From the NCBI GenBank assembly GCA_021799275.1, contig JAJZAT010000003.1, forward strand, positions 9,708 to 73,707: a stretch of 64,000 nucleotides of DNA, read 5' to 3'. This stretch comes from Bacillota bacterium. Its GTDB lineage: Bacteria > Bacillota > Sulfobacillia > JAJZYS01 > JAJYTV01. Each line of letters opens with the position of its first letter. Position 1 is the stretch's first letter. The position numbers and the translations under genes were made by a program. The notes beneath the pieces are model-generated. The model saw only the letters and a program-made list of their open reading frames with translations. It had not been told where the DNA came from and searched no databases. This document shows positions 42,360 through 64,000 of this stretch, piece after piece.

Positions 42360-43058
42360 ATGAGTGACACCGAACTATCCCTCAAGGGACATCGCCAATC
42401 GGTTCGCGATCTCATCTACGTCTCGCTACGGACGGCCATATCGCGCGGTGCCCTGGCGCCGGGCCAGATGTTGTCGGAGGAGCAGCTCTCGTCGTCGCTC
42501 AACGTCAGCCGCACGCCGCTGCGGGAAGCCTTGCAAAGACTGACCACGGAGGGACTCATTGAAAGGGCCGACAATGGCCGGATCAACGTCAAAAACGTAT
42601 CGCTGAGGGAAGCGACCCAACTGTACGCGGTGCGCTCCGTCCTCGAGCAACTGGCAGCCCGGGAAGCGTGCCTGAACATGACGTCGGAGGGCCTCGCGCG
42701 GCTCGAGAGGGCCTATGGGCAGATGCTCACCGACGAGAACGACCCGTCGAAGGACGTCGCCGACAGCGGCGGCAGCTTCCACGCGATCCTGCACCAGATT
42801 GCGGACAATCCGATCAACCTGCGTCTGCTCGCAAATCTCCAGGTGCTCATCTCGCGCTATCGCTACCTGAGCACTGGCAGGGCGAAGAGGACGCACCACG
42901 CGGTCGAGGAGCACGAGGGCATTCTGAGAGCTCTCGCCGCCTGCGACGCCGACGCGGCGGCGGAGGCCATGCGCATCCACATCGAGGAAAGCTTCGCCTC
43001 CGTCCGCAGCGCCCTGGTCGCTCTCGAGGAGTCCCAGCGATTCAAGGTGTCGGAGTAG
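42360..43058 (+). CDS. GntR family transcriptional regulator (FadR/FCD subfamily)
   Basis: N-terminal winged helix-turn-helix (LSEEQLSSSLNVSRTPLREALQRL), helical FCD-type C-domain. Confidence 0.85.
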   Translation: MSDTELSLKGHRQSVRDLIYVSLRTAISRGALAPGQMLSEEQLSSSLNVSRTPLREALQRLTTEGLIERADNGRINVKNVSLREATQLYAVRSVLEQLAAREACLNMTSEGLARLERAYGQMLTDENDPSKDVADSGGSFHAILHQIADNPINLRLLANLQVLISRYRYLSTGRAKRTHHAVEEHEGILRALAACDADAAAEAMRIHIEESFASVRSALVALEESQRFKVSE

Positions 43059-43980
43059 CCGAAGCATGGCGCAGCGCCGCGGTTAGTGCCTCGACGAATC
43101 CGGTCGCGTCTCCCACGATCCCGACGTCCGCCACATGAAAGATGGGCGCGCCGGGATCTTTGTTCACAGCGAGCATGTGCTTCGCATATACCCCAGAAAC
43201 GTGCTGCGGGGCACCCGAAATGCCGATCGCCAAGTAGATCTCGGGGCGCACGGTGTTGCCCGTCTGCCCGATCTGCTCTTCCGGTCCGGCCCAGCCTGCC
43301 TCCACTGCTGCGAGGGTGGCGCCCACGTTCGCATCCAGAAACTCGGCCAGTGGGGTCAGCTTCTCGAAGGACTCCAGGCGGCCAAGGCCCAAGCCACCGG
43401 AGACGATGTAGCGGGCCATATCGATGCCGGACGCCTGGCTCGCCCGTCGCTCCACGGTTGTCCAGGCGGGCTCCGCTGCCTCCAGCCAGGCTACGTCCCT
43501 GGCGGGCGCCGCGGCCCGCAGCGCACCGTTCTCCACGTCCTCCCGGTCTCGCAAGGTGGCCACCAGCGGTAGGCGCACCACCTCGATCTCCGCCTCAGCA
43601 CGACCGGCGAACGGCTTCATCGCAGCGCAAAGCGTGCCGTCCTCCCCCTGGTTCACGCTGTCGCAACCGGTCAGGCACGAGCCCTCGAGTCCCACGGCGA
43701 GTCCGGCCGCGATCTCACGTTGCAGGTTCCCGTCCCGGAGGTAGATGGCGTGCAGCCGACCGCCTTCGATCTGGGGCAGAATGTTCCTCACCACCTCGCG
43801 AGCGGCGGCAGACGGCGGTGCCTCAAAGATCAGCGCCGTGTCGCCCGTCCACGCCTCCCGCGGCGGGACGAGCCAGATGCCGAGGATCTCCTCCAGAGGA
43901 AAACGCCCGGCGAGAGTCGTCGGCAAGGCGGCATCCGCGGGGCTCAGCACGATGGCGCCGATCACTGGGCGGACCTCCAT
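43042..43980 (-). CDS. etfA: electron transfer flavoprotein alpha subunit
   Basis: C-terminal FAD-binding signature PEIYLAIGISGAPQH..G. Confidence 0.85.
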   Translation of the reverse strand: MEVRPVIGAIVLSPADAALPTTLAGRFPLEEILGIWLVPPREAWTGDTALIFEAPPSAAAREVVRNILPQIEGGRLHAIYLRDGNLQREIAAGLAVGLEGSCLTGCDSVNQGEDGTLCAAMKPFAGRAEAEIEVVRLPLVATLRDREDVENGALRAAAPARDVAWLEAAEPAWTTVERRASQASGIDMARYIVSGGLGLGRLESFEKLTPLAEFLDANVGATLAAVEAGWAGPEEQIGQTGNTVRPEIYLAIGISGAPQHVSGVYAKHMLAVNKDPGAPIFHVADVGIVGDATGFVEALTAALRHASATPTP

Positions 43981-44726
43981 TCTGCGAGCACGTCCAGGGC
44001 CTTCGCTACCTGCTCCTCGAGCGTGCCATCGAGCAACCTACAGTTCTTCTGCGGTCGCGGCGCCTTCTCGAGCCTGGCAAGGGAGAGCGCCGGCACTACT
44101 TCCACCGTCTCGACCAGCACCTCGCGGCGCTTCGCGGCGATCATGTCCTTGAGCTTCGGCTGGCGCAGCTTGAGGTGGGGAATCATCGTGACGCTGGCGA
44201 CAAAGGGCAGCGGCAAGCGCACGGTCTCCTCGGTGTGCTCGTCCACCACGTGGTCGACGAGCATTTCGCCCTTCCCGTCCGGGTTCACACTCAGGAGGCG
44301 GGGCACGAACGGCACGCCCATGAGCGCAGCGAGCGCAGGCCCGAAGATACCCTGATCCCAGTCCCCGGACTGCTCACCGACCAAGACGACATCCGGCTGA
44401 CCGGTACCCGCGAGGTGTGCTGCTAGAGCGCGCGCCGCCGTCATGCTGTCCAATGCGCAGTCGACGTCGATGCGCCGCGCGTCGTCCACGAGGTAGGTCA
44501 AGGCGACGCGCAGGGCTTCCGTCGCGTCCTTGGGACCGATCGCGACGCAGCGCACCCGGGTCTCCAGCAGATGGTCCCGCAGGGCGAGTGCCACCTCAAG
44601 GCTGATCTTGTCGAAGAGGCCCACTGTGTGGGGCACACGCGCGCCCGGCCGGCCGTCCTCGAAGGTGAGGAGGGCGTCGGGAAGCTCGGGGTCCGGAATC
44701 CACTTGAGGGTAACGAGGATATCCAA
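43962..44726 (-). CDS. etfB: electron transfer flavoprotein beta subunit
   Basis: Start MDILVTLKWIPDPE, typical EtfB. Overlaps etfA. Confidence 0.85.
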   Translation of the reverse strand: MDILVTLKWIPDPELPDALLTFEDGRPGARVPHTVGLFDKISLEVALALRDHLLETRVRCVAIGPKDATEALRVALTYLVDDARRIDVDCALDSMTAARALAAHLAGTGQPDVVLVGEQSGDWDQGIFGPALAALMGVPFVPRLLSVNPDGKGEMLVDHVVDEHTEETVRLPLPFVASVTMIPHLKLRQPKLKDMIAAKRREVLVETVEVVPALSLARLEKAPRPQKNCRLLDGTLEEQVAKALDVLAEWRSAQ

Positions 44727-44809
44727 CTCGAGACCCCTCCGTTCTTCAGGTCCTGAGGCTCCCGACCTGGCGGGAGCCTCAGGAAGGTTCGCGGGAACCG
44801 ATACGTGGC

Positions 44810-46216
44810 CTAGCCCCTGCCCGCAGCGAAGTCCGCGGCGTTGCGGCCTGCGATGCGGCCGTACACGGCACCCCTTAGGAACGACGTGGCCCCGGGATAC
44901 TTGCCGTAGTAGAGCCCGGTGATCTCGCCCGCCGCATAGAGTCCCGGGATCGGCCGATCGTCGCGGTCGAGCACCCGGCTTTCGGTGTCGGTCGCGATGC
45001 CGCCGTAGGTGAAGACGATCGAGCAGACGAGAGGCCAGGCCACGTAAGGCGTCTTCGTCAATGGCATGGCCCAGTTGGACTTCGCGGGTGCGATGCCGCG
45101 CGCTGCGTTGCCGTCTTTGCGCAGCGGCTGGAAGTCGGCGGTCGCGTTGTGGGCCGCTGCTCTGTTGTAGTCCTCCATGGTGCGGGAGAGGGCTGCGGCC
45201 GGTAGGCCGAGCTTCTCCGCTAGCTCCTCCACTGTGGCGGCTGTGACCGGCTCGACATCGGTGCCCAGCGCGTGATGGTAATTCGGGATCTCGAACACCT
45301 GCTGGTCGCAGATGCAGTAGGCCGTCTGGCCGGGCTGGGTCAGGAACGTGCGGGAGATCCGCTCGTAGGTCTCGTCGATGCTGTCCTCGCCCTCGTCGAC
45401 AAAGCGCTCGCCCAGCTTGTTGACGAGGATGCCGTACGGGAAAAGCATGACGACCGCCTCCGGCATCCTGCTGCGCGGGTCCACAGGCTCCGCGTGGAAC
45501 GAGTTGTACTCGCCCGCGGGCTTGGCGCCGAGCGCAAGGGCCGCCTCGATCCCCTCGCCCTTGTTCTGTTCGCCGCCAGGAGAGATGTTGCGCAACCGAT
45601 GCACCGGGTGTGGGAAGTACCGGGCCAGCATCTCGGGGTTCCCCTCGAAGCCGCCCGACGCCAGCACGACCGCCTTGGTCCCGATGGTCGCCGGGCCCTG
45701 CTGGGTGCCGACCTGTACGCCCACGATCCCGCCGCTCTCGTAGACAATGTGCTGGAAGGCCGTCTCGTAGAGGATTTCGACGCCGTACGACTCGACCTTG
45801 TCGGCAAGCCTCTCGACGACGGCCTTGCCACCCCCGACCGGCAGCAGGCGGGGACGCGCAGCCGTAAGGAAGATCGTCGGCAGGTGCTCGAACGCGACGC
45901 CCTGCTGCGCCAGCCAGTCGAGCGCGGCGGGCGCCTCGGCGGCCAGCCTGCGTACGATCTTCTCATCGCTGTAACCTTCGGAGAAGGCCATCATGTCCTC
46001 GACGAAGTGCTCGCTGACCGTGTTGTTGTCGGCCATGCGCAGATAGGCTCCGGTCCACCGCGAACTGCCGCCGCGCATCTCGCGCGAAGAGCGCTCAAGC
46101 ACCGCGATCGACACGTCCTCCGCCCCGGCCTCCACCAGCTGCTCGACGCAGGCCAGCGCCGTCGAGAGTCCCGCAACGCCCGCTCCGACGACGATGATGT
46201 CGTAATGCCCTTCCAT
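44810..46216 (-). CDS. FAD-binding dehydrogenase, TcuA-like (tricarballylate dehydrogenase family / FAD_binding_2)
   Basis: N-terminal YDIIVVGAGVAG. Collinear with TcuA, including DEGED and the C-terminal FTYGG...LYAAGE..G..YG...GRIAGRNAA. Confidence 0.7.
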   Translation of the reverse strand: MEGHYDIIVVGAGVAGLSTALACVEQLVEAGAEDVSIAVLERSSREMRGGSSRWTGAYLRMADNNTVSEHFVEDMMAFSEGYSDEKIVRRLAAEAPAALDWLAQQGVAFEHLPTIFLTAARPRLLPVGGGKAVVERLADKVESYGVEILYETAFQHIVYESGGIVGVQVGTQQGPATIGTKAVVLASGGFEGNPEMLARYFPHPVHRLRNISPGGEQNKGEGIEAALALGAKPAGEYNSFHAEPVDPRSRMPEAVVMLFPYGILVNKLGERFVDEGEDSIDETYERISRTFLTQPGQTAYCICDQQVFEIPNYHHALGTDVEPVTAATVEELAEKLGLPAAALSRTMEDYNRAAAHNATADFQPLRKDGNAARGIAPAKSNWAMPLTKTPYVAWPLVCSIVFTYGGIATDTESRVLDRDDRPIPGLYAAGEITGLYYGKYPGATSFLRGAVYGRIAGRNAADFAAGRG

Positions 46217-46243
46217 CGCTCCCGTGCCTCCTTCAGCCGAAAT

Positions 46244-46924
46244 CTAGAACGTACGCCGTCCGCCGATCTCCGGCACCCAACACTCGGCACCCTGCCGCTC
46301 CCGGCGCAGCGCCTCGACGAACGGTTCCGCCGTCGGCACGAGGGCCGGGAAGGTGCCGTAGTGCAGCGGCAGGGCCAGCCGCGCGCCGAGGTAGGTGACC
46401 GCCCGCGCCGCGGCCCCAGGGCCCATGGTGAAGTGGTCGCCGATCGGCACCATGGCCAGGTCGATGGCGTACATCTCGCCGTAGAGCCCAAGATCCGAGA
46501 AGAGCGCGGTGTCCCCGAGGTGGGCGAAGGTGAATCCGTCCACCTTGACGATGTAGCCGCTGGCGAGGCCGCTACGCGAGGTGTGCAGGGCTGGGATCAT
46601 GGTGACTTCGACGCCATCCGCGAGCCTCCGCGTGCCGCCCAGGTTCATCGTGAGGAAGGCATCCTCGGCGACGCCCTCCTCGCGGGACAGCCGCGCCAGC
46701 GTCTCCGGTTGGGTCACGATCTTGGCTCCGCTCTTGGCGAAGGCCGGGACGTCCTGCACGTGATCCCAGTGATCGTGCGTGACAAGCGCGAATCCGGGAT
46801 GCTCAGGTGCTGCCGCCTTCGCCACGGGGCTCTTGCTGTACCAAGGATCAATCACGAGGCAAAGGCCCTGCGCATTGCGCACTTCCACCGTGGAGTGCGC
46901 TACCCAGGTGATCTCGACGGACAT
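46244..46924 (-). CDS. MBL-fold metallo-hydrolase
   Basis: HxHxDH-type motif (THDHWDH). Second ATG chosen because it has an AGGAG SD. Confidence 0.7.
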   Translation of the reverse strand: MSVEITWVAHSTVEVRNAQGLCLVIDPWYSKSPVAKAAAPEHPGFALVTHDHWDHVQDVPAFAKSGAKIVTQPETLARLSREEGVAEDAFLTMNLGGTRRLADGVEVTMIPALHTSRSGLASGYIVKVDGFTFAHLGDTALFSDLGLYGEMYAIDLAMVPIGDHFTMGPGAAARAVTYLGARLALPLHYGTFPALVPTAEPFVEALRRERQGAECWVPEIGGRRTF

Positions 46925-46955
46925 CTCTCCACTCCTCATCGAGCCGACTTGGCAA

Positions 46956-47732
46956 TCACCATGCGGTCCAGCCGCCGTCGGCGAAGATCACCTGGCCGGT
47001 GACGTAATCCGACGCGGCGGTGGCCAGGAAGACGACGAGACCGCGCAGGTCCGTCTCCGGGTTGCCCAGCCGCCCTAGGAAGGTCCTCTGCCGCATCCAC
47101 TCGAGCCGGTCGGGCTGCGCCCCGAGCGGTCCCGTCATCTGGGTCGGGTAGAAGACGCCGGGAGCGACGCAGTTGACCTGGATGTTGTGCTTGCCCCATT
47201 CCAGCGCGAGTCCTCGCGTCAGGTTGGCAACCCCCGCCTTGGAGGCGTAGTAGGCGGACTCGGGCAAGGGGCCCACGATGTTCGTGTAGAGCGTCGACGT
47301 GTTGATGACCTTGCCGCGCTTCTGCCTGACCATCTCGCGGGCGACGCGGCGGTCGACAAGCCACGTGCCGGTCAGGTTGATGTCCACGATGCGCTGCCAC
47401 TCGGGCAGGGTCATCTCGAACGCATCCTTGCGCAGCATCACGCCGGCGTGGTGCACAAGGACATCGATCTTGCCGAACGTGTCCAAGGCCGCCGTGACCA
47501 TCGCATCGACCGCGCCTTCGTCGGCAACGTCGACGAAGCCGATCTCGGCGTGCCGCCCCAGGCCCTCGACCGCCGCCTTGGTCCGCTCAAGGTCTTCCTT
47601 CCTTGACGCCTGGTCGGCGAGGTATACATCCGAGCCGTGTTCCGCAAGGGCAAGCGCCGAATGGTAGCCGAGCCCGCCCGCAGACGCGCCTGTAACGAGG
47701 GACACCTGGCCTGTCAGATCAAACTGGTTCAT
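46956..47732 (-). CDS. SDR family oxidoreductase
   Basis: TGASAGGLG and YYASKAG motifs. Confidence 0.85.
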   Translation of the reverse strand: MNQFDLTGQVSLVTGASAGGLGYHSALALAEHGSDVYLADQASRKEDLERTKAAVEGLGRHAEIGFVDVADEGAVDAMVTAALDTFGKIDVLVHHAGVMLRKDAFEMTLPEWQRIVDINLTGTWLVDRRVAREMVRQKRGKVINTSTLYTNIVGPLPESAYYASKAGVANLTRGLALEWGKHNIQVNCVAPGVFYPTQMTGPLGAQPDRLEWMRQRTFLGRLGNPETDLRGLVVFLATAASDYVTGQVIFADGGWTAW

Positions 47733-47851
47733 CGAATCGCCTCCTGTGTAGACCGGAGCCTGCGGGTCGTATCATGGGATCTCGCCTTCGCTCGGCCGGG
47801 TCAGGCAGCAGCCGCTTCACTTCCTCGTCGCCTCGCCTCCTGACATCCGGC

Positions 47852-48370
47852 TCACGCCTGGTCGGTGCGCCGCCAGCCTCCCCCCGCGAGTAGCCAGGGC
47901 AGGAGCCCCCCTTGCGCCACCATGTCCATCAGGAAGGCCGGCAGGGGTGTGGCCTGGATCTCGGCCTGCGTGCGAACGTTGCGTACGCGGCCGTGCTCGA
48001 GGTCGACTTCCAGCCGGTCGCCTGTCCGGGCGAAGCCCGCGATGCCCGGGACCTCCAGGGCGACGAGACCGTTGTTGAACGCGTTGCGGTAGAAGTTGCG
48101 GGCGATCGACTCCGCGAACACCGCCGCCACGCCCGCATGCCTCAGTCCGATCGCGGCGTGCTCGCGCGACGATCCCGAACCGAAGCTGCGTCCGGCCACG
48201 ACGAAGTCGCCCGCCTCCACCCTGCGGGAGAAGTCCGGCATGACGCCCTCCATGATGTGGGCAGCCCAGACCGAAGGGTCGCGGTCGACCAGGTACATCG
48301 ACGGAATGATGGCGTCCGTGTCCACGTCATCGCCGAAAGTCCATGCCATTCCTACGCGGATTGTCTCCAT
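47852..48370 (-). CDS. aconitase-family small subunit (3-isopropylmalate/homoaconitate/methylaconitate dehydratase small subunit, LeuD-like)
   Basis: GDDVDTDAIIP and GRSFGSGSSRE motifs. Confidence 0.8.
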   Translation of the reverse strand: METIRVGMAWTFGDDVDTDAIIPSMYLVDRDPSVWAAHIMEGVMPDFSRRVEAGDFVVAGRSFGSGSSREHAAIGLRHAGVAAVFAESIARNFYRNAFNNGLVALEVPGIAGFARTGDRLEVDLEHGRVRNVRTQAEIQATPLPAFLMDMVAQGGLLPWLLAGGGWRRTDQA

Positions 48371-48373
48371 GCT

Positions 48374-49618
48374 CTACACCTCCCCCGCCGCGCGGATCTC
48401 CCCAGCAATCGCGGAGGCCGCGACCGTCGCCGGTGACGCAAGATAGACCTGCGAATCCGGGTGGCCAGATCTCCCGCGAAAGTTGCGGTTCTGCGTCGAG
48501 ATCCGCACCTCGCCCCGGGCGAGCGTTCCCTCGTGGATGCCGGGACAGGAGCCGCAGCCCGGCGAGCACACCACGGCCCCGGCGTCGGTGAACACCTCCA
48601 TCAGCCCCTCCGCCAACGCCTGACGGTACTCCCGCACGGTGGCGGGAGTTACGAGAAGGCGCACGTCCCGGTGAATGCGTCGCCCACGCAGCACCTCGGC
48701 GGCCACCCTGAGATCCTCGATCGTGCCGTGGGTGCAGCTGCCCAGGTAGGCCTGGTCGATGCGGATGCCGCGCACCTCCCCAAGGGGGTGGACGTTCGCC
48801 GGATTGGGCGGGGTCGACACGACAGGTTCGAAGTTGCCCGCATCGTAGTGGTGCACGGCCTCGAAGCCGGCGTCAGGGTCGCTCTCGAGTTCAGCGCACG
48901 GCTTGCCGTGGGCGGCGTGGTAGTTGCGCGTCACCTCGTCCACGGCGACAATGCCGTTTTTGGCCCCGAATTCGGTCGAAAGATTGCAGAGCGTCATGCG
49001 ACCCGGAATCCCCATGCCCCTGATCGTCGTTCCCGCCCACTCGATCGCCTTGTAGGTCGCGGCGTGCCGTCCGTGCTCCCCCAGAAGCCTGAGACCGACG
49101 TCCATCGCCATGACCGCCGGCGGCAGCTCCCCATCGATCTCGAAGCGGATGGTGGGCGGCACGCGCATCCAGGTCCTGCCGGTCGCGAAAACGGCTGCAA
49201 CGTCCGTCGGCCCAAGCGCCACGGCTAGCGCGCCGATCGCACCGGACGTGTTGGTGTGGGAGTCGGTCGCAACCAGGATGTCCCCGGCGCCGAGCAGGCC
49301 GCTGTCGAGAAAGAACTGGTGCTTGATGCCGTAGTCCGTCACCGTCCGAAGACCATGCTCTCTGGAGAACGCCACGAGCCCGCGCACAATCTCCGCCTCG
49401 TCCAGCCCCGAGGGCGGCATGTAATGGTCCGAGATGGCGATCGCGCGTTCTGGATCCCATGGCTTGCCACCCAGGCGATCGAACGTTTCGGCGAAGATCG
49501 AGAACTGGACGTCATCGATGCTGGCTAGGTCCACATCGACCACGACGAGGTCTCCCGGCTGCACGTGCTCGTGTCCGGAACGTCTCGCCAAGATCTTCTC
49601 GGTGATCGTCATGCCCAT
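48374..49618 (-). CDS. aconitase-family large subunit (LeuC-like dehydratase)
   Basis: MTITEKIL start, and Fe-S cysteine ligands (SCTHG, CSPGCGSCPG). Confidence 0.85.
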   Translation of the reverse strand: MGMTITEKILARRSGHEHVQPGDLVVVDVDLASIDDVQFSIFAETFDRLGGKPWDPERAIAISDHYMPPSGLDEAEIVRGLVAFSREHGLRTVTDYGIKHQFFLDSGLLGAGDILVATDSHTNTSGAIGALAVALGPTDVAAVFATGRTWMRVPPTIRFEIDGELPPAVMAMDVGLRLLGEHGRHAATYKAIEWAGTTIRGMGIPGRMTLCNLSTEFGAKNGIVAVDEVTRNYHAAHGKPCAELESDPDAGFEAVHHYDAGNFEPVVSTPPNPANVHPLGEVRGIRIDQAYLGSCTHGTIEDLRVAAEVLRGRRIHRDVRLLVTPATVREYRQALAEGLMEVFTDAGAVVCSPGCGSCPGIHEGTLARGEVRISTQNRNFRGRSGHPDSQVYLASPATVAASAIAGEIRAAGEV

Positions 49619-49657
49619 GGGCGTGGTCTCCTTTCGTCGGTTCGTGATCCGCCCAGC

Positions 49658-50908: not shown

Positions 50909-50917
50909 GGTTGGGAA

Positions 50918-52625: not shown

Positions 52626-52630
52626 CCTCC

Positions 52631-54269: not shown

Positions 54270-54316
54270 GACGTGACCCTCCACTTCGTTATCTCTGGCC
54301 GCCCTGAAAGCGGCCG

Positions 54317-55810: not shown

Positions 55811-55820
55811 CGAATCTCCC

Positions 55821-56279: not shown

Positions 56280-56479
56280 CCCGATACCCCCTCTTCAGCC
56301 AGGGTCGAAGCGGGGAGAAGGTACGCAACGCCAAGGGGCCGCGTCCTCCACCCTGCAGCCTCGTCGCTCATTTGCACCCCGGGCGGACGGGCAGGGGCTC
56401 CCCTGCCCGCCTCAGCTCGGGTGTTCTCCAGCCCGACTCCCCGGCCCATCGCGCGGCCGAAGGGTTAAGGGCCGACCTC

Positions 56480-57472
56480 CTACTTGGCTACGCCCAGCCT
56501 CTTGAAGAGTTGGCCGTCCGACTTGTACTCGCTGTAGATCAGCTTGGTCGTCTGCGCGGAGTTCAGGTAGTCGACGGTGATGCCGATCTTTGCGAAGTTG
56601 GCCTTGAGCTCGGGCGACTTGGCGGCCTCGGCCAACGCCTTATCGAGCACATTCATCACGTACTGCGGGGTCTTGGCCGGAGCCGCGAGGCCCTGCCACA
56701 CGCCGACGGCAACCGGGTAGCCCTGCTGCTCGAACGTAGGAGCGTTCGGGAAGATGGGTGACCGCTTCGGCGCCGACGTCGCCAGGATGCGCACCTTGCC
56801 GGCGCGGACGTCCGACAGGACCTCACCCGTGTTGTTGTAGCTGAAGCTCGTTCGACCGGCGAGCGCGGACAGCAGTTCGGCCGGTCCGCCGGTAAAGCCG
56901 CTCACGGTCGTGAACTTGAGGTGCGCGTCGTACGCGAACTCCGCACCCATCACGTCCGTACTGGGCCAGCCGGCCGTGAACGGAGCCTTCAGCTTGTTGG
57001 GGTGCTTGCGGGCGTAGGCGACCAGTTGCTTCAAGGTCTTGAATGGGCTCGTTACGGGGACGTCCAGGTAGTTGGGAATGTACGTGATCTGGCCGACATA
57101 CTTGAAGCTTTGCGGTCCGAACGGTACCCCCTTCTCGATCCAGGGCGCATCGATGATGCCCGGCGAGTCGAAGAACAGGGTGTAGCCGTCGGCCACGGAG
57201 TCCGACGCGACGCTCGTGCCGGTGATGCTACCGGCACCCGGGATGTCCGAAACGATGACAGGCACCTTGAGTTCCTGCTGCAGGATCGGCGCCAGCGCCC
57301 TCGCCGTCTGGTCCACGCCACCACCCGCGGCGTACGGGACGATGATCTCGATCGGCCGCGTCGGGTACTGAGGTACGGCGGCGCTCGCGATCGGAAGGGC
57401 CATGAGCGTCGTCGATGCCGCGAACACCAGGGCGGCGGATACACCTACTCCGGCACGAAACTTGCAAGCCAT
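56480..57472 (-). CDS. tctC: tripartite tricarboxylate transporter substrate-binding protein TctC (Bug family)
   Basis: Signal peptide plus Bug-family length (~330 aa) and motifs (PGAGG, C-terminal Y..S). Confidence 0.8.
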   Translation of the reverse strand: MACKFRAGVGVSAALVFAASTTLMALPIASAAVPQYPTRPIEIIVPYAAGGGVDQTARALAPILQQELKVPVIVSDIPGAGSITGTSVASDSVADGYTLFFDSPGIIDAPWIEKGVPFGPQSFKYVGQITYIPNYLDVPVTSPFKTLKQLVAYARKHPNKLKAPFTAGWPSTDVMGAEFAYDAHLKFTTVSGFTGGPAELLSALAGRTSFSYNNTGEVLSDVRAGKVRILATSAPKRSPIFPNAPTFEQQGYPVAVGVWQGLAAPAKTPQYVMNVLDKALAEAAKSPELKANFAKIGITVDYLNSAQTTKLIYSEYKSDGQLFKRLGVAK

Positions 57473-57596
57473 ACGGTTACCTCCCCCGCTTCATTCCGTC
57501 TCCATCCGGGAACCGCGCAGACCTGGAATTCGGCGTGCTGCGTCACCCCCCTAAAGGACCAGGGCCGGCCAGCGGCCGGGAACACGACAAAACGGG

Positions 57597-58976
57597 CTAC
57601 GCGATGGCCCGCGCGGCCCCTCGGCCCGCGATGCGGCCGAAGACCGTCGCCTTGCCAAGCGACGTACCCGTCATGTATGCGGCGCCATGGAACCCGCCCA
57701 TGACCTCGCCAGCGGCGTAGAGGCCCGGGATCGAATCCCCGAAGATGTCGAGGACCCTCGCGTCTTCGTCGACCGTGATGCCCGCATAGGTGGCGATGAT
57801 GGCCGACGTGGACGGATAGGCGTAGAACGGCGGTTCCTCCAGGGTAGCGAGGGACCCGAACCGGTGGGTGAGGTGCTTTCGCCCGAGAGGATCGTCGAGG
57901 CCCTCGCGAACCATCTCGTTGTAGCTCTCCACCGTCTTTTTGAGCCTTCCGGGGTCGATCCCGATCTTACCGGCGAGTTCCTCGAGGCTGGGCGCCGTAA
58001 TCAACCGACCCTCGGTGATGCGGCGATGGAAGTCGAACATGGGATAGCCCGGCACGCTCTGACGCATCACGGCCTCGTCGAAGATCTGGAAGCCGAGCGC
58101 GTCCTCCTGCTCTAGACAGGCATCGCCGAGCAGCTTGTAGTCGAGCGACTCGTCGACGAATCGGCGGCCCTGCTTGTTCACGGCGATGGCGCCCTTGTAG
58201 ACCGCCATGCAGGCTGTGTGATGGCCTGACTGCGCCTGCGGGTGATTCCCGAAGGTTCCCTTCACGTAAGGCATATCCCTAAGGCCTGCGCCAAGCTGCC
58301 AGGCCATCCTGAGGCCGTCACCGTAGTTGCCTAGTCCCCCGAGGCGCAGCGCACGCTCCTTGCCGGGCGCGAACGCCGCGATCATCTCCTTGTTCTGGCA
58401 GAAGCCGCCGCTCGTGAGCACGACTCCGCGCTCTGCCCTGAGGAAGAACTCCTGGTCTCCCTCGTGCGCCCGGACAGCGACGACTCTACCCGTCTCGTGG
58501 TCTTGCACGAGACGATCGGCCGTCACGCCGGTGACCACGGTGAGGTTCGGCACCTGACGCGCCGCGGCGTGCAGAAGGTCGATCACCCGCCTCGGATTGG
58601 ACGGATGCGATCGCGGCACCGACTGTCCCGAGGCCGCCTGGACCTGTCCAAACTCGATCCCGTGCTCCCGGAGCCAATGGTAGGCAGCAAGGTTGTCTCT
58701 TACGTAGCGATCGACCAACCTGAGGTCGTTGCGGTGCTGCCCGACCTGGATCAGATCCTCGCGCAGCAGCTCGGGCGAGTCCTCGATCCCCTGGGCGGCT
58801 TGCAGGTCGGTGCCGGTGAAGCAGAACGAGCCGCCGCTCATCACGGTGCTGCCGCCCACTTCGTCCTGCTTCTCGCACAGGAGCACCTCGATACCTTGCT
58901 CGGCCGCCGTGAGGGCAGCCACAAAGCCCGCTAGTCCCGCTCCGACGACCACGACCGCACTCTGCAACTCTTCCAT
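57597..58976 (-). CDS. FAD-dependent oxidoreductase (fumarate reductase/succinate dehydrogenase flavoprotein-like, FAD_binding_2)
   Basis: VVVVGAGLAG N-terminus, the GG...TGTD region, and C-terminal LYAAGEVMGG. Confidence 0.8.
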   Translation of the reverse strand: MEELQSAVVVVGAGLAGFVAALTAAEQGIEVLLCEKQDEVGGSTVMSGGSFCFTGTDLQAAQGIEDSPELLREDLIQVGQHRNDLRLVDRYVRDNLAAYHWLREHGIEFGQVQAASGQSVPRSHPSNPRRVIDLLHAAARQVPNLTVVTGVTADRLVQDHETGRVVAVRAHEGDQEFFLRAERGVVLTSGGFCQNKEMIAAFAPGKERALRLGGLGNYGDGLRMAWQLGAGLRDMPYVKGTFGNHPQAQSGHHTACMAVYKGAIAVNKQGRRFVDESLDYKLLGDACLEQEDALGFQIFDEAVMRQSVPGYPMFDFHRRITEGRLITAPSLEELAGKIGIDPGRLKKTVESYNEMVREGLDDPLGRKHLTHRFGSLATLEEPPFYAYPSTSAIIATYAGITVDEDARVLDIFGDSIPGLYAAGEVMGGFHGAAYMTGTSLGKATVFGRIAGRGAARAIA

Positions 58977-59024
58977 GCGCGTCTCCCTCCGCCTCGAGGA
59001 CTCTGCGCCGGTTCGCCTGGCGGT

Positions 59025-59918
59025 TCAGACCTTCACGACGAACCGCCGCTCGAGATCGAAGATGCCTGGCAGGCCGAGCAGCTCGTTGATCTCCTCGAAC
59101 GAGACCGCGAGGTCGCTGCGGTCGGGGACCGTGTCGGCCCGGACGGTTGTCTCGAACGCCTGGAGGGCGTTGATCATGCCCTGGATGGTCGCCGCCGTAA
59201 GCATGCGGGGATACTCCACCACCGCGGCGCCGAGTTCCTGAAGGCGCTTGGGCGACAAGAGCGGCGTGGTCCGCCGGGACCGGATGCCGAACCCCATGTT
59301 GATCGCGACGGGCTTCTCCACGTTGCGGCAGAAGGTGGCGATGTCGTCCTCAGACAGCAGGGCGTCGGCGAAGAGGAGGCTCGCTCCCGCTTCGCCGTAC
59401 AGGTTTGCGCGGCGGATCGCCTCGGCGATGCCGAGCGGGGCGGCGGCGTCCGTCCTGGCCTTGATCACGAACTCAGAATCGCGACGCGCCTCGACCGCGG
59501 CGTGGATCTTCTCCACCATCTCCTCGGCCGGGATGACCTCCTTGCCGGCCATGTGCCCGCAGCGCTTCGGCCAGGTCTGGTCCTCGAGCATCAGACCGGC
59601 CGCACCGGCGTCCTCGAAGTCCCGCACGGCGTGGTACACGTTCACCGCGTTGCCGTAGCCTGTGTCTCCGTCTGCGATTAGCGGCATGTCGGTGATGCGG
59701 GCCAACATGCGGACCGCGTCGAGGTTCTGCTGCAGGCCCATGAGCCCGACGTCCGGGTAGCCGTAGCGGCTTTCCGACACTCCCGCGCCGGTGATGAGGG
59801 CCGCCTTGTAACCACGGCGCTCGGAGACCAGGGCGCTGAAGGCGTCGAACACGCCCGGCGCGATGAGGATCTCCGGTGCCTCGATCAGGCTCCTCAGTCG
59901 TCTTGAACGCTCACTCAC
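59025..59918 (-). CDS. isocitrate lyase/PEP mutase family protein (2-methylisocitrate lyase / carboxyvinyl-carboxyphosphonate phosphorylmutase-like)
   Basis: DGDTGYGN and EDQ..PKRCGH motifs of the ICL/PEPM superfamily. Confidence 0.8.
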   Translation of the reverse strand: MSERSRRLRSLIEAPEILIAPGVFDAFSALVSERRGYKAALITGAGVSESRYGYPDVGLMGLQQNLDAVRMLARITDMPLIADGDTGYGNAVNVYHAVRDFEDAGAAGLMLEDQTWPKRCGHMAGKEVIPAEEMVEKIHAAVEARRDSEFVIKARTDAAAPLGIAEAIRRANLYGEAGASLLFADALLSEDDIATFCRNVEKPVAINMGFGIRSRRTTPLLSPKRLQELGAAVVEYPRMLTAATIQGMINALQAFETTVRADTVPDRSDLAVSFEEINELLGLPGIFDLERRFVVKV

Positions 59919-59952
59919 GTCGACGAGCCTCCTCGTTTTGCCACCGCCCGGA

Positions 59953-60648
59953 TCAACCTTTGAGCCCCGCCGGTCGACCCCAGCCCAGCAGCTCGATCTC
60001 GCTGCCCACCACCGCGGCCCTGCCGGCCGGCGATGCCACGAACCAGACCGCCTCCGCCACCGTCGCCGGCTCCATCCAGGTGGCCGCCTCCTCCGGCTTG
60101 ACGAAGGGCCTGGTCATCTCCGTCAAGACCGGTCCGGGACTGATCGCCGCGAACTGGATTCCCTGACCGCGGAACTCCTCCGACAGCGACTTCGTCAGAC
60201 CTAGAAGCCCCCACTTCGAGGCGATGTAGGCACTGCGTTTCACGCCCGCCATGCGGGACCAGATGGAGCAGATGTTGATCACCGTCCCGCCGCCGCGCCT
60301 GAGCATACCTGGCAGCACCGCCCGCGCCGTCGTGGCGGCGCCGGCCAGGTTGACGTCGATGATGCGATTCCAGCGTTCGGTCGGGAGGTCGAGAAAATCG
60401 TCGTACTGGGCAAGCCCCGCCGCGTTGACAAGGCAGCCGACTTGACCAAGCTCCGCCTGCGTGGCGGCGAGCGCTGCCGCGACGTCCCCCTCGTCGGTGA
60501 TGTCGCACAGGAGGCTCTGCACCGCAGGCTCCGCCCCCGTCAGGGTCTTGACGTCCCAAACGCTGACCGGCCAACCCTCACGGGTAAACCGCTGCACGAT
60601 CGCCTTGCCGATATCCCCTGCGCCGCCGGCCACCACCAACGCGTCCAT
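59953..60648 (-). CDS. SDR family oxidoreductase
   Basis: Start MDALVVAGGAGDIGKAI, with YIASK catalytic motif. GGAGGTG SD. The tracker ORF is over-extended. Confidence 0.75.
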   Translation of the reverse strand: MDALVVAGGAGDIGKAIVQRFTREGWPVSVWDVKTLTGAEPAVQSLLCDITDEGDVAAALAATQAELGQVGCLVNAAGLAQYDDFLDLPTERWNRIIDVNLAGAATTARAVLPGMLRRGGGTVINICSIWSRMAGVKRSAYIASKWGLLGLTKSLSEEFRGQGIQFAAISPGPVLTEMTRPFVKPEEAATWMEPATVAEAVWFVASPAGRAAVVGSEIELLGWGRPAGLKG

Positions 60649-60947
60649 CCCTGTGCACCTCCAGGTGCCACATCGTCGCATCCACGAACCCGAGGCCGCT
60701 GCCGACCTGTGCCATGGCAGGCCTGCCGACTTCCACCTCTGTCGGTCACTTCTGCATTCTTGTATACATCTCCTGCTGCACGGAAATTTCTTTTTACCAC
60801 TCTGCACCGATTTGAGCCAAGGCCCGCTGCTAGCTTTGGGCGCTAGCCTCCGCATCCGGGCGGCCGAGGACTGCTTGCCGTCCGGTCACCTTTCTTTCGG
60901 TCGTTCGGCTGCTCCCCTGGCCGCATGGCCCCGTTCGAGACAAACGG

Positions 60948-61724: not shown

Positions 61725-61726
61725 GA

Positions 61727-63067
61727 TCAGTCGGCCAGTAGGGCGGTCAGTTCCCCAATACCGGCCACGTCCTCGAGGTGTGCGACGGCGTCCCGGATCG
61801 CGTCGAGACGGGACGTCGGAAACCTGGTTCCGGCGAGACTAAGGAACTTGCGCCAGTGGTCTTCCGGCGTCATCGGATTCTGCAAGGAGCCCTTCGGGTA
61901 GTCCACCTGTGCCTCAAACGACTCGCCGGAATCCAGCTTGACGCGAAGGTTACAGGAGACGCCGCGGGACAGGCCGGGATCGGCCTCGAACTGCAGCATG
62001 CGAGACAGACGCTGTACCTCGGGGAGCGCAATGAACTCTTCCTGGAACTGGTCGAGGAAGGCGGCGCCCTCCACTAGAGCCACCGCCACGGCGTGGTTCA
62101 GGCTGACCTGCGCCTCGTGATGGCTGCGCGGGCTGCGAATCTGGTGGTAGTGGGCCCAGGCCGGATGGCGGTAGATCGTCAGCTCCCGGATCTCCGCAAG
62201 CCGCCCTGCGACCTGCCGCCGCAGCTCAAGCGCGCAGTCGACCGCGTTGTGGATCGGCCTTGCGCAGGCATAGGCCTTGTACTCGATCCGCACGGGGTAC
62301 TCCGTACCGAGGCGGTCGACGAGTGCTCGCGGATCGCCCCCACCTGTGAAAGCCTTGAGGACGCCCCTCTCACCTTCGAAGATGGTGTCGGCACCGGTAT
62401 AGCCGCGCCGCGCTAGGCGCGCCGCCACGACGCCGTTCTGAGCCGCCGGTCCGGGGTTGATGCGCTTCTGCATCGAGGGTCCGTACATCTCCATGAGTCC
62501 GGCGGCGTGCGCTCCGGCGATGCCAAAGGTGCTGGCCACCTGCTCTGGCGAAAGCCCTTCGACGCGTGCCGCCGCCGCGGCGGCGCCAAACACGCCACAG
62601 GTGGCGGTACTGTGGAAGCCACGGTCGCGCATGGCCGGGTTGGCCGCGTTCGAGACGCGCGCCATGACTTCGCTGCCGGCGGCGGCGGCCAGGAGGTATC
62701 CCTTGCCGCCGAGCCCCGCCGCCTCTGTCGCCGCGAGCGCGGCCGACAGCACCGGTGGGCTGAAATGGAACAGCGCGAGGTCGTCGACGTCGTCGAGTTC
62801 GATGCTGTGGGCTGCCACCGCGTTCGCGAACGCCGCCGCCTGCGCGCTCACCTGCGCGCCGGAGCCGATGATCGTGGCTTCAGGTCGGGCCGCGCCATAC
62901 TCCGTCTGGAATCCCGCCACGATGCGCGCGGAATCGGTCAAGGAGCCCCGCAGGGCCACGCCGAGATAGTCCAGGGTGAGGACCTTGAGTTCCTCGATGA
63001 GCGGCGTCGGAACGTCCTCGAACCTGAGGCTCGCGACATGGTCCGCTAGTTGCAGGGTCTCGTGCAA
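61727..63067 (-). CDS. MmgE/PrpD family protein (2-methylcitrate dehydratase / cis-aconitate decarboxylase family)
   Basis: Family-typical N-terminal helical domain, length (~446 aa), and collinear resemblance to PrpD. Confidence 0.8.
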   Translation of the reverse strand: MHETLQLADHVASLRFEDVPTPLIEELKVLTLDYLGVALRGSLTDSARIVAGFQTEYGAARPEATIIGSGAQVSAQAAAFANAVAAHSIELDDVDDLALFHFSPPVLSAALAATEAAGLGGKGYLLAAAAGSEVMARVSNAANPAMRDRGFHSTATCGVFGAAAAAARVEGLSPEQVASTFGIAGAHAAGLMEMYGPSMQKRINPGPAAQNGVVAARLARRGYTGADTIFEGERGVLKAFTGGGDPRALVDRLGTEYPVRIEYKAYACARPIHNAVDCALELRRQVAGRLAEIRELTIYRHPAWAHYHQIRSPRSHHEAQVSLNHAVAVALVEGAAFLDQFQEEFIALPEVQRLSRMLQFEADPGLSRGVSCNLRVKLDSGESFEAQVDYPKGSLQNPMTPEDHWRKFLSLAGTRFPTSRLDAIRDAVAHLEDVAGIGELTALLAD

Positions 63068-63116
63068 TCGGGTTCCCTCCTCTGTGACACAGTGGCGATG
63101 GACGGAGCGCTCGAAC

Positions 63117-63983
63117 TCAGTGCCGCCGGGACTCTCTCGCCGGGCCCTCCTCCCCTTGGGCCGGCAGCGCGATGGCTGTCAGCCAGGCGTCACGGATCGC
63201 CGTAAGAAAATCTCCCGGCTGGTTGCAGTCACCGACGAGTACATAGGACATCCCGAGATCCTCGAGCACAGGCACGACGGAGCGTTCCGGCCGCACCCCC
63301 ATCGCCAGCACGAGGAAGTCGCCGCCGTCGAGCGTTCGCCGCTCCCCCTCGACGGTCAGTTGCAGGCTGCTGCCCTCGACCCTGTCCACCCTGGCGTCCG
63401 TAATCATCGCGACCCCCTGCGCCCGTAGCCGCAGGAGGAGGTCGGCTCGGTTGTTACGGGGCATGCTCGCCGCGATCTTCGGCAACATCTCGAGGACGGT
63501 CACGTGGCAGCCCCTCCCCGCGAGGACTTCGGCTGTCTCCACGCCCACGAGCCCCCCGCCGACGATGGTCACGCGCGCGCCAGGCGGGATGCGACCCTGC
63601 TCTGCAAGCACCTCCCAGGCAGTAAGGCAGGGCACTTCCGTCTGCTCGAACAGCGCAGGCCTGACAGGCGTCGCGCCTGTGGCCACGATCACGTGGTCCG
63701 GGGCGAATTCCCGCAAGGCCTGTGGGGTCGGACTGACGCCCAACCGAACCGGCACCCCAAGGTTCTGCAGCTGCTGCCAGCGATAGCTCCAGACACCGCG
63801 GACTTCTTCCTTGTGTGGAGGCACAAGGGCCAGGACGAGTTGGCCGCCGGGCTGCTGCCGTCGTTCCCAAACCTCGACGCTGTGTCCCTGGGCCGCGAGA
63901 TGACGCGCCGCCTCGACGCCGGCGACGCCGGCGCCGATCACTAGGACGCGTCTGGGCTGGTGCGGCAGTGCCTCTTTCGCCAC
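63117..63983 (-). CDS. FAD/NAD(P)-binding pyridine-nucleotide-disulfide-type oxidoreductase
   Basis: RRVLVIGAGVAG and a second Rossmann motif TIVGGGLVG. Apparent GTG start near the window edge. The reading frame stays open beyond it, so the N-terminus may extend past the window. Confidence 0.65.
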   Translation of the reverse strand: MAKEALPHQPRRVLVIGAGVAGVEAARHLAAQGHSVEVWERRQQPGGQLVLALVPPHKEEVRGVWSYRWQQLQNLGVPVRLGVSPTPQALREFAPDHVIVATGATPVRPALFEQTEVPCLTAWEVLAEQGRIPPGARVTIVGGGLVGVETAEVLAGRGCHVTVLEMLPKIAASMPRNNRADLLLRLRAQGVAMITDARVDRVEGSSLQLTVEGERRTLDGGDFLVLAMGVRPERSVVPVLEDLGMSYVLVGDCNQPGDFLTAIRDAWLTAIALPAQGEEGPARESRRH

Positions 63984-64000
63984 CTGAGGCTCGGCGCTTT

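Follow-up and report, generated by a model that had tools for sequence, protein, structure and literature searches.

We have analysed a stretch of 64,000 nucleotides from the genome of a Bacillota bacterium of the class Sulfobacillia (assembly GCA_021799275.1, contig JAJZAT010000003.1, positions 9,708 to 73,707 of the forward strand), which is here called the window, and we have found that the run of 21 genes at its end constitutes a genuine, conserved catabolic island, in which three recurring enzyme sets are combined. The island is a composite of about 25-27 kb, of which 21 kb is located in the window. The role that we favour, to which we assign a probability of roughly 0.45, is the uptake and the coenzyme A (CoA)-independent breakdown of C5-C7 di- or tricarboxylic acids that are branched or unsaturated and are built on a succinate backbone, i.e. 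acids of the itaconate, citraconate and alkylsuccinate types, possibly supplied as lactones.

Extent of the island

Genes were called from the listing of open reading frames (ORFs) and a filter on the G+C content of third codon positions (GC3), in a window with about 66-72% G+C, and were assigned to families with Pfam and NCBIfam. The 21 genes are consecutive and all located on the minus strand, from position 43042 to the end of the window, and are separated in five places by gaps of 83-299 nt. Only one plus-strand ORF inside this span, at 54750-55397, has a coding-like GC3, and it is a shadow of tctA. A first-pass annotation, made from the sequence letters alone, had described here a 21-kb, single-strand island at 43042-63983. 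Its start, its strand and every gene family that was named for it have been reproduced; its end was misplaced, since contig L003, which is 100% identical to window positions 58370-64000, extends 3998 nt beyond the window edge and carries the rest of an old yellow enzyme (OYE)/FadH-type gene, a PrpF-family gene, a third Asp_Glu_race gene (Rac3) and another FAD_binding_2 gene. The last gene of the window, which had been read as an FAD/NAD oxidoreductase, does match Pyr_redox_2, but it is only the C-terminal part (residues ~380-678) of a 678-aa protein with Oxidored_FMN and Pyr_redox_2 domains; it matches positions 378-640 of long FadH/OYE models, and the full gene has been read in L001 and L003.

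Conservation in close and distant relatives

Three related assemblies (contigs L006 and L092, both from GCA_021845645.1, and L007 and L008) have the full gene order, a convergent gntR gene and its aldo-keto reductase (AKR) neighbour included, with amino-acid identities of 64-94%. In L092, a major facilitator superfamily (MFS) transporter gene and an aminotransferase gene are inserted on the opposite strand, at 12283-15254, between the gene of the second metallo-β-lactamase-fold protein (MBL2) and that of the second short-chain dehydrogenase/reductase (SDR2), and the lyase gene is followed by one more FAD_binding_2 gene (471 aa); the island therefore gains and loses genes within the lineage, and is not rigid. 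The upstream boundary is also visible in L092, where the first island gene is an FAD_binding_2 gene, divergent from another aldo-keto reductase gene.

In distant genomes, we have compared the neighbourhoods of three anchors, i.e. the DUF6282, the MmgE/PrpD and the LeuC-like proteins. The DUF6282 protein was uninformative as an anchor and was set aside: 79 of the 80 loci fetched (33-41% identity) share no other island genes, save scattered weak matches to paralogue-rich families (SDRs and a few single matches), a result that confines the whole island to one lineage.

The MmgE/PrpD protein has orthologues (50-66% identity) among Bacillota, Chloroflexota, Alphaproteobacteria and Acidobacteriota. 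We have counted the genes beside this anchor in the 36 loci that have at least 6 kb of flanking sequence (35 metagenome contigs and the Oleispirillum genome locus L094; anchor identity 50-55%): a second MmgE/PrpD paralogue is present in 28 of them (23-36% identity), a PrpB-like lyase in 21 (34-42%), an OYE/FadH-type enzyme in 20 (50-58%) and a hydrolase of the MBL2 type in 19 (26-32%), followed by a PrpF-family protein resembling 3-methylitaconate isomerase (Mii) in 15 (59-66%), a GntR/FCD regulator in 13 (27-33%) and a TctC protein in 11 (26-30%). In loci L158 and L161, the order (GntR, a Rac1-like protein at 45% identity, PrpF, OYE, PrpB-like lyase, MBL2, PrpD-like protein, TctC) is near that of the window, and the cultured Salirhabdus salicampi and Oleispirillum naphthae have versions of the core set with uptake systems of the tripartite tricarboxylate transporter (TTT) or the tripartite ATP-independent periplasmic (TRAP) type. 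Distant DUF6282 homologues flank MmgE/PrpD orthologues in 12 of 83 loci and hardly ever occur alongside the MBL2 type, which suggests that the two are alternative hydrolases. In the metagenome contigs L106, L134 and L143, between four and six MmgE/PrpD paralogues follow one another, accompanied by DUF6282, a PrpB-like lyase gene and a gene of the OYE type (39-40% identity); these contigs represent a paralogue-rich variant of the core module.

Around orthologues of the LeuCD-like proteins (61-65% identity), a PrpB-like lyase gene follows within 3 kb in all three contexts (L183-L185); these contexts also hold FAD_binding_2, GntR/FCD, Asp_Glu_race, isochorismatase-family and Amidohydro_1 genes, and in L183 a citrate-synthase gene and PrpD fragments. 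On a plasmid of Variovorax sp. SRS16, a row that comprises a TcuA-like protein (44% identity), an SDR, a Rac2-like protein (44%) and an FAD2-like protein (50%) adjoins an MmgE/PrpD gene and three tctC genes, so that genes from both halves of the island co-occur elsewhere.

Three sub-modules emerge from these contexts: sub-module A, with the racemase-like, Mii-like and OYE proteins, the PrpB-like lyase, the lactonase-like MBL protein and the MmgE/PrpD protein related to iminodisuccinate (IDS) epimerase and cis-aconitate decarboxylase (CAD), together with TctC and GntR; sub-module B, with the LeuCD-like hydratase and the PrpB-like lyase; and sub-module C, with the TcuA-like protein, the SDR, the racemase-like protein and the fumarate-reductase-like FAD enzyme. 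The island is a lineage-specific fusion of these three recurring sub-modules, whose members cross-associate in other phyla. The first-pass annotation had proposed a look for co-occurrence in relatives and had treated the island as one unit: the whole order is indeed kept in close relatives, but only the sub-modules are found in distant ones, and the idea of a single indivisible unit does not survive the separate sub-modules outside one narrow Bacillota lineage and the two opposite-strand genes inserted in L092.

Two further sets of loci were encountered. Distant LeuCD-like pairs (40-42% identity) on a Peribacillus frigoritolerans plasmid (L177) and on Haloferax volcanii pHV4 (L179) are located beside a CaiB-type CoA transferase gene and a gene of the 3-hydroxy-3-methylglutaryl-CoA (HMG-CoA)-lyase family, with genes for an Asp/Glu racemase, a tartrate dehydrogenase and an SLC13 permease also present in L177; by analogy, these clusters look like a CoA-dependent counterpart for similar acids. 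Plasmid homologues of Rac1 and the MmgE/PrpD protein (30-36% identity) in Pukyongiella, Rhodococcus and Deinococcus lie in unrelated clusters and were therefore discarded as paralogues.

The isomerase, the hydratase and the lyase

The product of the PrpF-family gene, which is located just outside the window, is 54.5% identical over 369 positions to the Mii protein of Eubacterium barkeri (structure 3g7k; E 2.7e-117), and is closer to Mii than to PrpF (about 1e-66), LigU (about 1e-54) or GalD. The residues that align with Lys62 and Cys96 of Mii are kept (in the segments LTSKLAI and CGNIS), and these are the residues that Velarde and colleagues are said to have identified, in 2009, as catalytic. 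Judged from the alignment, the protein is a Mii-like member of the 3-methylitaconate isomerase clade. The reaction of Mii is the conversion of methylitaconate to dimethylmaleate, and itaconate is also accepted (PMC4720413).

The two LeuCD-like subunits pass subfamily models only (Table 1), and remain below the LeuC, LeuD, HacA and HacB equivalog cut-offs. The large subunit has the cysteine motifs of the Fe-S cluster, GSC (293) and C-x2-C (355); it belongs to a small orthologous group of its own (58-68% identity), and its identity to biosynthetic LeuC/HacA proteins of the archaeal type is about 47%. Neither leuA nor leuB is located near the two genes. The specificity loop of the small subunit (SMYLVDRDP), considered as a guide to alkyl versus carboxyalkyl substrates, is not conserved among the catabolic homologues, and nothing has been deduced from it.

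The PrpB-like lyase, encoded 9 kb away from the LeuCD-like proteins in the window, belongs to the isocitrate lyase (ICL)/phosphoenolpyruvate (PEP) mutase superfamily. It remains below the PrpB cut-off (238.5 vs 354.4), and its best solved relative is the petal death protein (1zlp, 3.8e-57), followed by methylisocitrate lyases. Residues 118-122 form a KRCGH loop; a K(K/R)CGH loop with its cysteine marks the lyase branch of this superfamily, as opposed to the mutase-type loop.

The MmgE/PrpD protein, the hydrolases and the racemase-fold proteins

The MmgE/PrpD protein reaches only 24.9 bits with the PrpD model (cut-off 575), and its closest solved relatives are IDS epimerase (1e-33) and CAD (1e-30). 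Six residues, H87, E90, H101, H152, K201 and K264, are invariant in 25 orthologues; by residue numbering only, they correspond to His88, Glu91, His102, His152, Lys202 and Lys266 of methylsuccinate isomerase (PMC12290011). All characterised MmgE/PrpD enzymes, the methylsuccinate epimerase of the itaconate clusters included, use substrates with a C4-1,4-dicarboxylate substructure (PMC12290011).

Among the hydrolases, MBL2 has 4-pyridoxolactonase and the AiiA-type lactonases as its best relatives, at scores far below the cut-offs of these families. The DUF6282 protein has a conserved set of residues (HxH, K, H, H, D), and its AlphaFold2 model (pLDDT 95.4) retrieves, with Foldseek, mostly amidohydrolase TIM barrels and a few PHP-family or other barrels, at 12-17% identity; on this model, the amidohydrolase-superfamily fold is predicted with confidence, without a match to a specific subfamily.

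At the positions of the catalytic Cys79 and Cys184 of allantoin racemase (3qvj), alignment places Asn and Ala in the racemase-superfamily paralogues Rac1 and Rac3, and Thr and Gly in Rac2. The Asn/Ala pattern recurs in the 45-46%-identical Rac1 homologues of L158 (~3835-4626) and L161 (~3727-4518), which are encoded next to a Mii-like gene, and its retention in 45%-identical homologues from other environments argues for a non-racemase function. Racemase chemistry appears doubtful for all three proteins on these alignments, while their membership of the fold family stands.

The flavoenzymes

The TcuA-like protein falls just short of one TcuA model (Table 1) and clearly fails a second one (TIGR02485, 221.3 bits vs a cut-off of 372.55). 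Its closest plasmid homologues (41-46% identity) are located beside genes for an aldehyde dehydrogenase, a CoA transferase and a CitE-like lyase, and adjoin neither TcuB nor electron transfer flavoprotein (ETF) genes; the records that are annotated as tcuA are only about 34% identical. The absence of TcuB, stated in the first-pass annotation, holds: in those window proteins that were scanned with Pfam, no TcuB-like (CCG/Fe-S) protein turned up, and neither TcuB nor TcuC occurs in the island or its relatives, where ETF and TctABC/MFS proteins are present instead. The equivalog scores, together with the lack of the partner genes, led us to reject membership of a bona fide TcuABC system.

FAD2 resembles soluble fumarate reductases and urocanate reductase (1qo8, 2.2e-56; 6t85, 8.7e-53), and a paralogue of 71% identity is encoded in the L003 extension, where the island is furthest upstream. 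The closest solved relatives of the OYE/FadH-type enzyme are 2-naphthoyl-CoA reductase (6qkg) and FadH (1ps9); the first 8 nt of its gene are shared with the end of the Mii-like gene upstream. The ETF genes are present only in the version of the island of this lineage, with an etfB product of 254 to 287 aa in the gene calls of the relatives.

The regulator and the DNA elements

The GntR/FCD gene that the first-pass annotation had placed at the boundary is convergent with the island: its 3' end overlaps the 3' end of etfA, and it is not divergent from a promoter. It is conserved together with the island and with the upstream AKR gene (about 41300-42290), and its position and orientation are kept in L006 and L007.

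In the 299-nt gap upstream of SDR2, we have found a 19-nt motif, TGTATACAAGAATGCAGAA, that contains a perfect 8-bp palindrome and may be written as TGTATACA(A/G)GAATGCAGAA; the match is unique, with 0 expected by chance. The motif is kept at the same site upstream of SDR2 in L001 (~4717), L007 (~890) and L092 (~4256 or ~15485); L092 holds copies at both of these positions, the second copy being about 85 nt upstream of the first island gene. A TGTATACA is also located upstream of the AKR-gntR pair in L006 (~20784). The TGTATACA-containing motif thus appears to mark two island promoters and the regulator's own promoter in the relatives, and this common, operator-like element ties the promoter of the regulator to those of the island. 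The GT..AC shape of the palindrome is usual for GntR operators; the motif is a candidate GntR/FCD operator, to which the boundary regulator would bind.

A scan for sigma-70 promoter and intrinsic-terminator consensus sequences gave nothing above the shuffled expectation. The hairpins after the TcuA-like gene and after tctC are strong, GC-rich and without T-runs, and may be attenuators or mRNA-stabilising elements. A 'GTATAC' core seen upstream of module genes in the distant loci L093 and L185 was too weak to count.

Features and setting in the window

The features of the island are listed in Table 1. The SDR1 protein reached no NCBIfam equivalog cut-off, and the best solved relatives of the DUF1932 dehydrogenase, 4ezb and 3qsg, are both uncharacterised. 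TctC begins with what resembles a Sec signal peptide that ends in ASAA, without a lipobox cysteine at the cleavage site; as read from the sequence, such a signal would be unusual for the solute-binding protein of a monoderm member of the Bacillota, and may fit an envelope of the diderm type.

Table 1. Features of the island and its boundary, in window coordinates unless contig L003 is named.
Feature	Position	Strand	Basis or remark
GntR/FCD transcription regulator	42360..43058	+	Pfam GntR and FCD
ETF alpha subunit	43042..43980	-	Pfam ETF_alpha 6.8e-28
ETF beta subunit	43962..44726	-	Pfam ETF 3.5e-15; start codon uncertain
Hairpin with perfect 13-bp stem, between the TcuA-like gene and etfB	44752..44783	-	ViennaRNA -27.3 kcal/mol
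TcuA-like soluble FAD dehydrogenase (FAD_binding_2)	44810..46216	-	NF006130 (TcuA) 368.3 bits vs cut-off 369
MBL1, MBL-fold metal-dependent hydrolase, PRK00685/UPF0173 type	46244..46939	-	NF001911 169.8 bits vs cut-off 144
SDR oxidoreductase 1 (SDR1)	46956..47732	-	adh_short_C2 1.1e-54
LeuCD/DmdAB-type Fe-S hydratase, small subunit	47852..48370	-	TIGR02087 'LeuD/DmdB family' 174.4 bits vs cut-off 109
LeuCD/DmdAB-type Fe-S hydratase, large subunit (LeuC/HacA type)	48374..49618	-	NF001614 481.6 bits vs cut-off 385
MFS transporter, second uptake system	49658..50908	-	MFS_1 1.4e-35
DUF6282 protein, predicted amidohydrolase-superfamily metal hydrolase	50918..51724	-	PF19799 1.6e-51
NAD(P)-dependent dehydrogenase	51714..52625	-	NAD_binding_2 and DUF1932
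Rac2, racemase-superfamily paralogue	52631..53437	-	Asp_Glu_race 3.5e-23
Rac1, racemase-superfamily paralogue	53478..54272	-	Asp_Glu_race 1.6e-22
TctA, membrane part of tripartite tricarboxylate-type transporter	54317-55810	-	Pfam 2.5e-126
TctB, membrane part of tripartite tricarboxylate-type transporter	55821-56279	-	Pfam 3.3e-17
GC-rich hairpin directly downstream of tctC	56386..56411	-	-23.1 kcal/mol
TctC solute-binding protein	56480..57472	-	Pfam 2.2e-40
FAD2, soluble fumarate-reductase/urocanate-reductase-like flavoenzyme	57597..58976	-	FAD_binding_2 2.7e-63
PrpB/petal-death-protein-like C-C lyase (ICL/PEP-mutase superfamily)	59025..59918	-	PEP_mutase 4e-51
SDR oxidoreductase 2 (SDR2)	59953..60648	-	231 aa; 300-aa ORF over-extended
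Conserved 19-nt motif with 8-bp palindrome	60750..60768	-	candidate GntR operator/promoter element
MBL2, lactonase-like MBL hydrolase, 248 aa	60948..61694	-	Lactamase_B 3.4e-20
MmgE/PrpD-family protein, uncharacterised widespread clade	61727..63067	-	both Pfam domains
OYE/FadH-type Fe-S flavoenzyme (enoate-reductase class), C-terminal FAD/NAD(P) part	63117..64000	-	gene runs off window
Rac3, third Asp_Glu_race protein	L003 841-1632		just beyond window
PrpF-family (Mii-like) protein	L003 1681-2853		just outside window

Over the first 42 kb of the window, the coding strand alternates repeatedly, and the genes there are of the housekeeping kind (SLT, glycosyltransferases, LexA, arginine deiminase genes, GlnA and HflX). 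The LexA repressor gene (28316-29089) and a complete arginine deiminase set on the plus strand (arginine deiminase, ornithine carbamoyltransferase and carbamate kinase, 30394-33704) form an ordinary chromosomal context, which indicates that the island is chromosomal. Five long ORFs (495-767 aa) at 5974-7689, 9688-13634 and 18921-22330 have coding-like GC3 and zero Pfam matches; they sit amid glycosyltransferase and HD-domain genes. Rfam and tRNA scans of the window gave no matches.

Proposed function

We infer the following scheme from the enzyme families, and with it the substrate, the sequence of the steps, the redox partners (ETF coupling included) and the pairing of regulator and operator. 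The acids would be taken up by TctABC, by the MFS carrier or by both, and lactone rings would be opened by MBL2, by the DUF6282 enzyme or by both. The MmgE/PrpD protein would catalyse a dehydration or an epimerisation at the succinate backbone, and the Mii-like isomerase would move an exo-methylene double bond into the chain, i.e. from the itaconate type to the citraconate type. Saturated acids of the alkylsuccinate type might join this unsaturated pool through the TcuA-like and the fumarate-reductase-like FAD enzymes, with ETF as the acceptor that replaces TcuB, and the OYE/FadH-type enzyme would take away a double bond that blocks hydrolysis or hydration. The LeuCD-like enzyme would then add water to an alkylmaleate, and the PrpB/petal-death-like lyase would cleave the resulting 2-hydroxy acid to pyruvate (or glyoxylate) and acetate, propionate or succinate. 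The GntR/FCD protein would control at least two island promoters, and its own, through operators of the TGTATACA type.

A more specific and wider proposal, which we regard as unlikely, is that the conserved core (racemase-like, Mii-like, OYE/FadH, PrpB-like, MBL lactonase and MmgE/PrpD proteins, TctC or TRAP uptake, and GntR/FCD) constitutes an undescribed CoA-independent route, present across several phyla, for itaconate-derived or related lactone acids, extended in this lineage by FAD dehydrogenases with ETF in place of TcuB, and with the Cys-less racemase-fold proteins in a new, non-racemase role. In one version of this route that is consistent in its chemistry, the OYE enzyme would reduce a lactone of the aconate or paraconate type, the MBL enzyme would open the lactone to 2-(hydroxymethyl)succinate, and the MmgE/PrpD protein would dehydrate the latter to itaconate; the Mii-like enzyme would convert itaconate to citraconate, a second MmgE/PrpD paralogue (or, here, the LeuCD-like enzyme) would hydrate citraconate to citramalate, and the lyase would cleave citramalate to pyruvate and acetate.

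Several observations weigh against a common catabolic role for the whole island in succinate-backbone acids. The whole island is found in one lineage only, and its synteny could partly reflect recent common descent; the neighbours of the distant DUF6282 homologues are unrelated, and ETF, MBL1, LeuD/LeuCD, MFS and DUF1932 dehydrogenase genes are located beside the MmgE/PrpD anchor in 0 of the 36 loci. In the window itself, the site upstream of the AKR-gntR pair is degenerate (TGCATACA, 41176-41183, where the palindrome contains a mismatch). None of the core-module proteins has been characterised, and the substrates are read from the families; the racemase-like proteins, which appear to lack the catalytic cysteines, have no role in the scheme. 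It is awkward for one catabolic route to have both an NAD(P)H-dependent reductase (OYE) and as many as four FAD dehydrogenases, which may mean that there are several substrates. Finally, the TTT system and the score of the TcuA-like protein would fit a tricarboxylate too.

Alternative explanations

The most direct challenge to a common role is that several unrelated, separately regulated pathways, with no common substrate class, happen to be arranged head to tail along a single strand in this lineage. Such an arrangement would be in keeping with sub-modules that are not co-conserved outside the lineage, with two transporters (TctABC and MFS), with the five gaps and the two hairpins, and with the inserted genes and the extra FAD gene of L092. 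It is contradicted by the Variovorax row, where TcuA-like, Rac2-like and FAD2-like genes adjoin MmgE/PrpD and TctC genes, by the LeuCD-like genes that elsewhere stand beside PrpB-like lyase, FAD_binding_2, GntR and Asp_Glu_race genes, and by the 19-nt motif, which occurs at two separate island promoters in L092, with a related palindrome at the operon of the regulator; moreover, all of the enzyme families act on succinate-backbone acids. We consider it unlikely, though deserving of real weight. A hydantoin-, pyridone- or maleimide-like cyclic amide or N-heterocycle, from which OYE and ring-opening amidohydrolases would feed an alkylmaleate to the hydratase-lyase pair, as in the full nicotinate fermentation, seems quite improbable as the substrate. 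The reductase-then-hydrolase logic would fit, proteins that resemble hydantoin and allantoin racemases and a protein of the amidohydrolase fold are present, and isochorismatase-family and Amidohydro_1 genes accompany LeuCD-like orthologues elsewhere, with an isochorismatase-family hydrolase in the Variovorax cluster as well; but the racemase-like proteins lack both catalytic cysteines, the DUF6282 protein has no specific amidase match, the transporters are of the carboxylate type, and Pfam and NCBIfam scans of the island found no molybdenum hydroxylase, B12 mutase, isochorismatase-type amidase or Amidohydro_1 gene.

The remaining alternatives concern named acids. Tricarballylate and aconitate head the acids listed in the first-pass annotation. 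For their utilisation, the TcuA-like enzyme would oxidise tricarballylate to cis-aconitate, ETF would stand in for TcuB, and TctABC would import the acid. The near-threshold TcuA score, the ETF genes directly downstream of the TcuA-like gene, the TctABC system and the ability of PrpF-family enzymes to isomerise aconitates (PMC5690661, PMC4720413) are all compatible with it. However, the second TcuA model was missed by far, the closest homologues belong to aldehyde-dehydrogenase, CoA-transferase and CitE-lyase clusters, and the TcuA-like and ETF genes lie outside the conserved core; the PrpF-family member is Mii-like, and not similar to PrpF or aconitate isomerase, and cis-aconitate enters the tricarboxylic acid (TCA) cycle directly, which would leave some twenty further enzymes superfluous. 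This makes the idea rather improbable. A modified 2-methylcitrate cycle for propionate, in which PrpD, PrpF and PrpB would act with an aconitase-like hydratase, is very improbable, and is already largely refuted by the failed equivalog tests (PrpD 24.9 vs 575, PrpB 238.5 vs 354.4, PrpF 267.3 vs 440.55): all four enzyme superfamilies of the AcnD/PrpF-type cycle are present, and context L183 adds a citrate-synthase gene and PrpD fragments, yet no methylcitrate synthase (PrpC) or propionyl-CoA synthetase (PrpE) occurs in the island, L001, L003, L006, L007 or L092, and dedicated importers point to an external acid. Overall, the first-pass view of a catabolic island for small branched or unsaturated carboxylic acids that matches no textbook pathway as a whole is supported. 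Among the acids that it had listed, itaconate represents the favoured type, and tricarballylate, aconitate and methylcitrate have become less likely: a tricarboxylate is less likely than an acid of the itaconate, citraconate or alkylsuccinate type, because the PrpF member is Mii-like, the MmgE/PrpD protein is not a PrpD, and the relatives of the TcuA-like protein adjoin neither TcuB nor ETF genes.

Comparison with known systems

The closest parallel to the isomerase-hydratase-lyase core that we propose is the lower part of the nicotinate fermentation of E. barkeri, which Alhapel and co-workers are said to have put in order in 2006, and in which Mii, dimethylmaleate hydratase (DmdAB) and 2,3-dimethylmalate lyase (Dml) reportedly act in succession. 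By analogy, the island would mirror these steps with its PrpF-family isomerase (54.5% identical to Mii), its two-subunit LeuCD-type Fe-S hydratase, which is likened to DmdAB by the NCBIfam 'LeuD/DmdB' subfamily model and not by direct identity, and its ICL/PEP-mutase-family lyase with the KRCGH loop, likened to Dml by family and not by direct identity; the pairing of hydratase and lyase is conserved in other lineages. Unlike the E. barkeri pathway, the island has no nicotinate dehydrogenase, 6-hydroxynicotinate reductase, enamidase, 2-(hydroxymethyl)glutarate dehydrogenase or dehydratase, or B12-dependent mutase, and it adds an OYE-type reductase, the MmgE/PrpD protein, a lactonase-like MBL protein, up to four FAD_binding_2 enzymes, ETF, racemase-like proteins and a TTT transporter.

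The itaconate/methylsuccinate cluster of Pseudomonas and Cupriavidus comprises Ict, Ich, Ccl, methylsuccinyl-CoA dehydrogenase, an MmgE/PrpD methylsuccinate isomerase and 2-hydroxyparaconate lactonase (PMC12290011, PMC9875883). The island shares with it the branched C5 dicarboxylate theme, a lactonase-like enzyme, an MmgE/PrpD enzyme with the His/Glu/His/His/Lys/Lys set (matched by numbering) and flavin dehydrogenation that presumably feeds ETF. It differs in that CoA transferase, enoyl-CoA hydratase, CoA-ester lyase and acyl-CoA dehydrogenase are all missing, from which a CoA-independent logic follows; its lactonase-like enzyme has the MBL fold instead of the VOC/glyoxalase fold, and its MmgE/PrpD protein has an Asp at position 148 where, by numbering only, the isomerase has Tyr148.

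With the 2-methylcitrate cycle (in its PrpD or AcnD/PrpF version, with PrpB), the island has in common the MmgE/PrpD, PrpF, aconitase and ICL/PEP mutase superfamilies and a presumed cleavage to pyruvate and an acid, whereas PrpC and PrpE are absent, the prp equivalog cut-offs are widely missed, and the hydratase is of the LeuCD type and not of the AcnB/AcnD type. The TcuABC system of Salmonella enterica resembles the island in its soluble FAD_binding_2 dehydrogenase, which here scores at the TcuA threshold, and in polycarboxylate import; it differs in the presence of TcuB and TcuC, in place of which the island has adjacent ETF genes, and the closest homologues of the island enzyme occur in non-TcuA contexts.

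Significance

The enzyme families and the general logic of the island are familiar, and the core gene set occurs in several phyla without a described function: our literature searches for the core gene combination found no description in the searchable literature. The only established bacterial route for itaconate degradation is CoA-dependent (PMC12290011, PMC9875883). The combination of a Mii-like isomerase, an uncharacterised MmgE/PrpD clade, a PrpB-like lyase, a lactonase and an enzyme of the enoate-reductase type points to another route, one without CoA, for a group of compounds (itaconate, citraconate, mesaconate, methylsuccinate, 2-hydroxyparaconate and 2-hydroxymethylsuccinate) that comprises immunometabolites, fungal products and polymer building blocks. 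Since cultured carriers of the core module exist, among them Salirhabdus salicampi, Bacillus oleivorans, Oleispirillum naphthae and Niveispirillum sp., such a route is directly testable. If it is real, functions would be gained for the MmgE/PrpD clade, for the Cys-less racemase-fold proteins and for the DUF6282 and DUF1932 families, and the island further suggests that ETF may serve as an alternative electron acceptor for flavoenzymes of the TcuA type.

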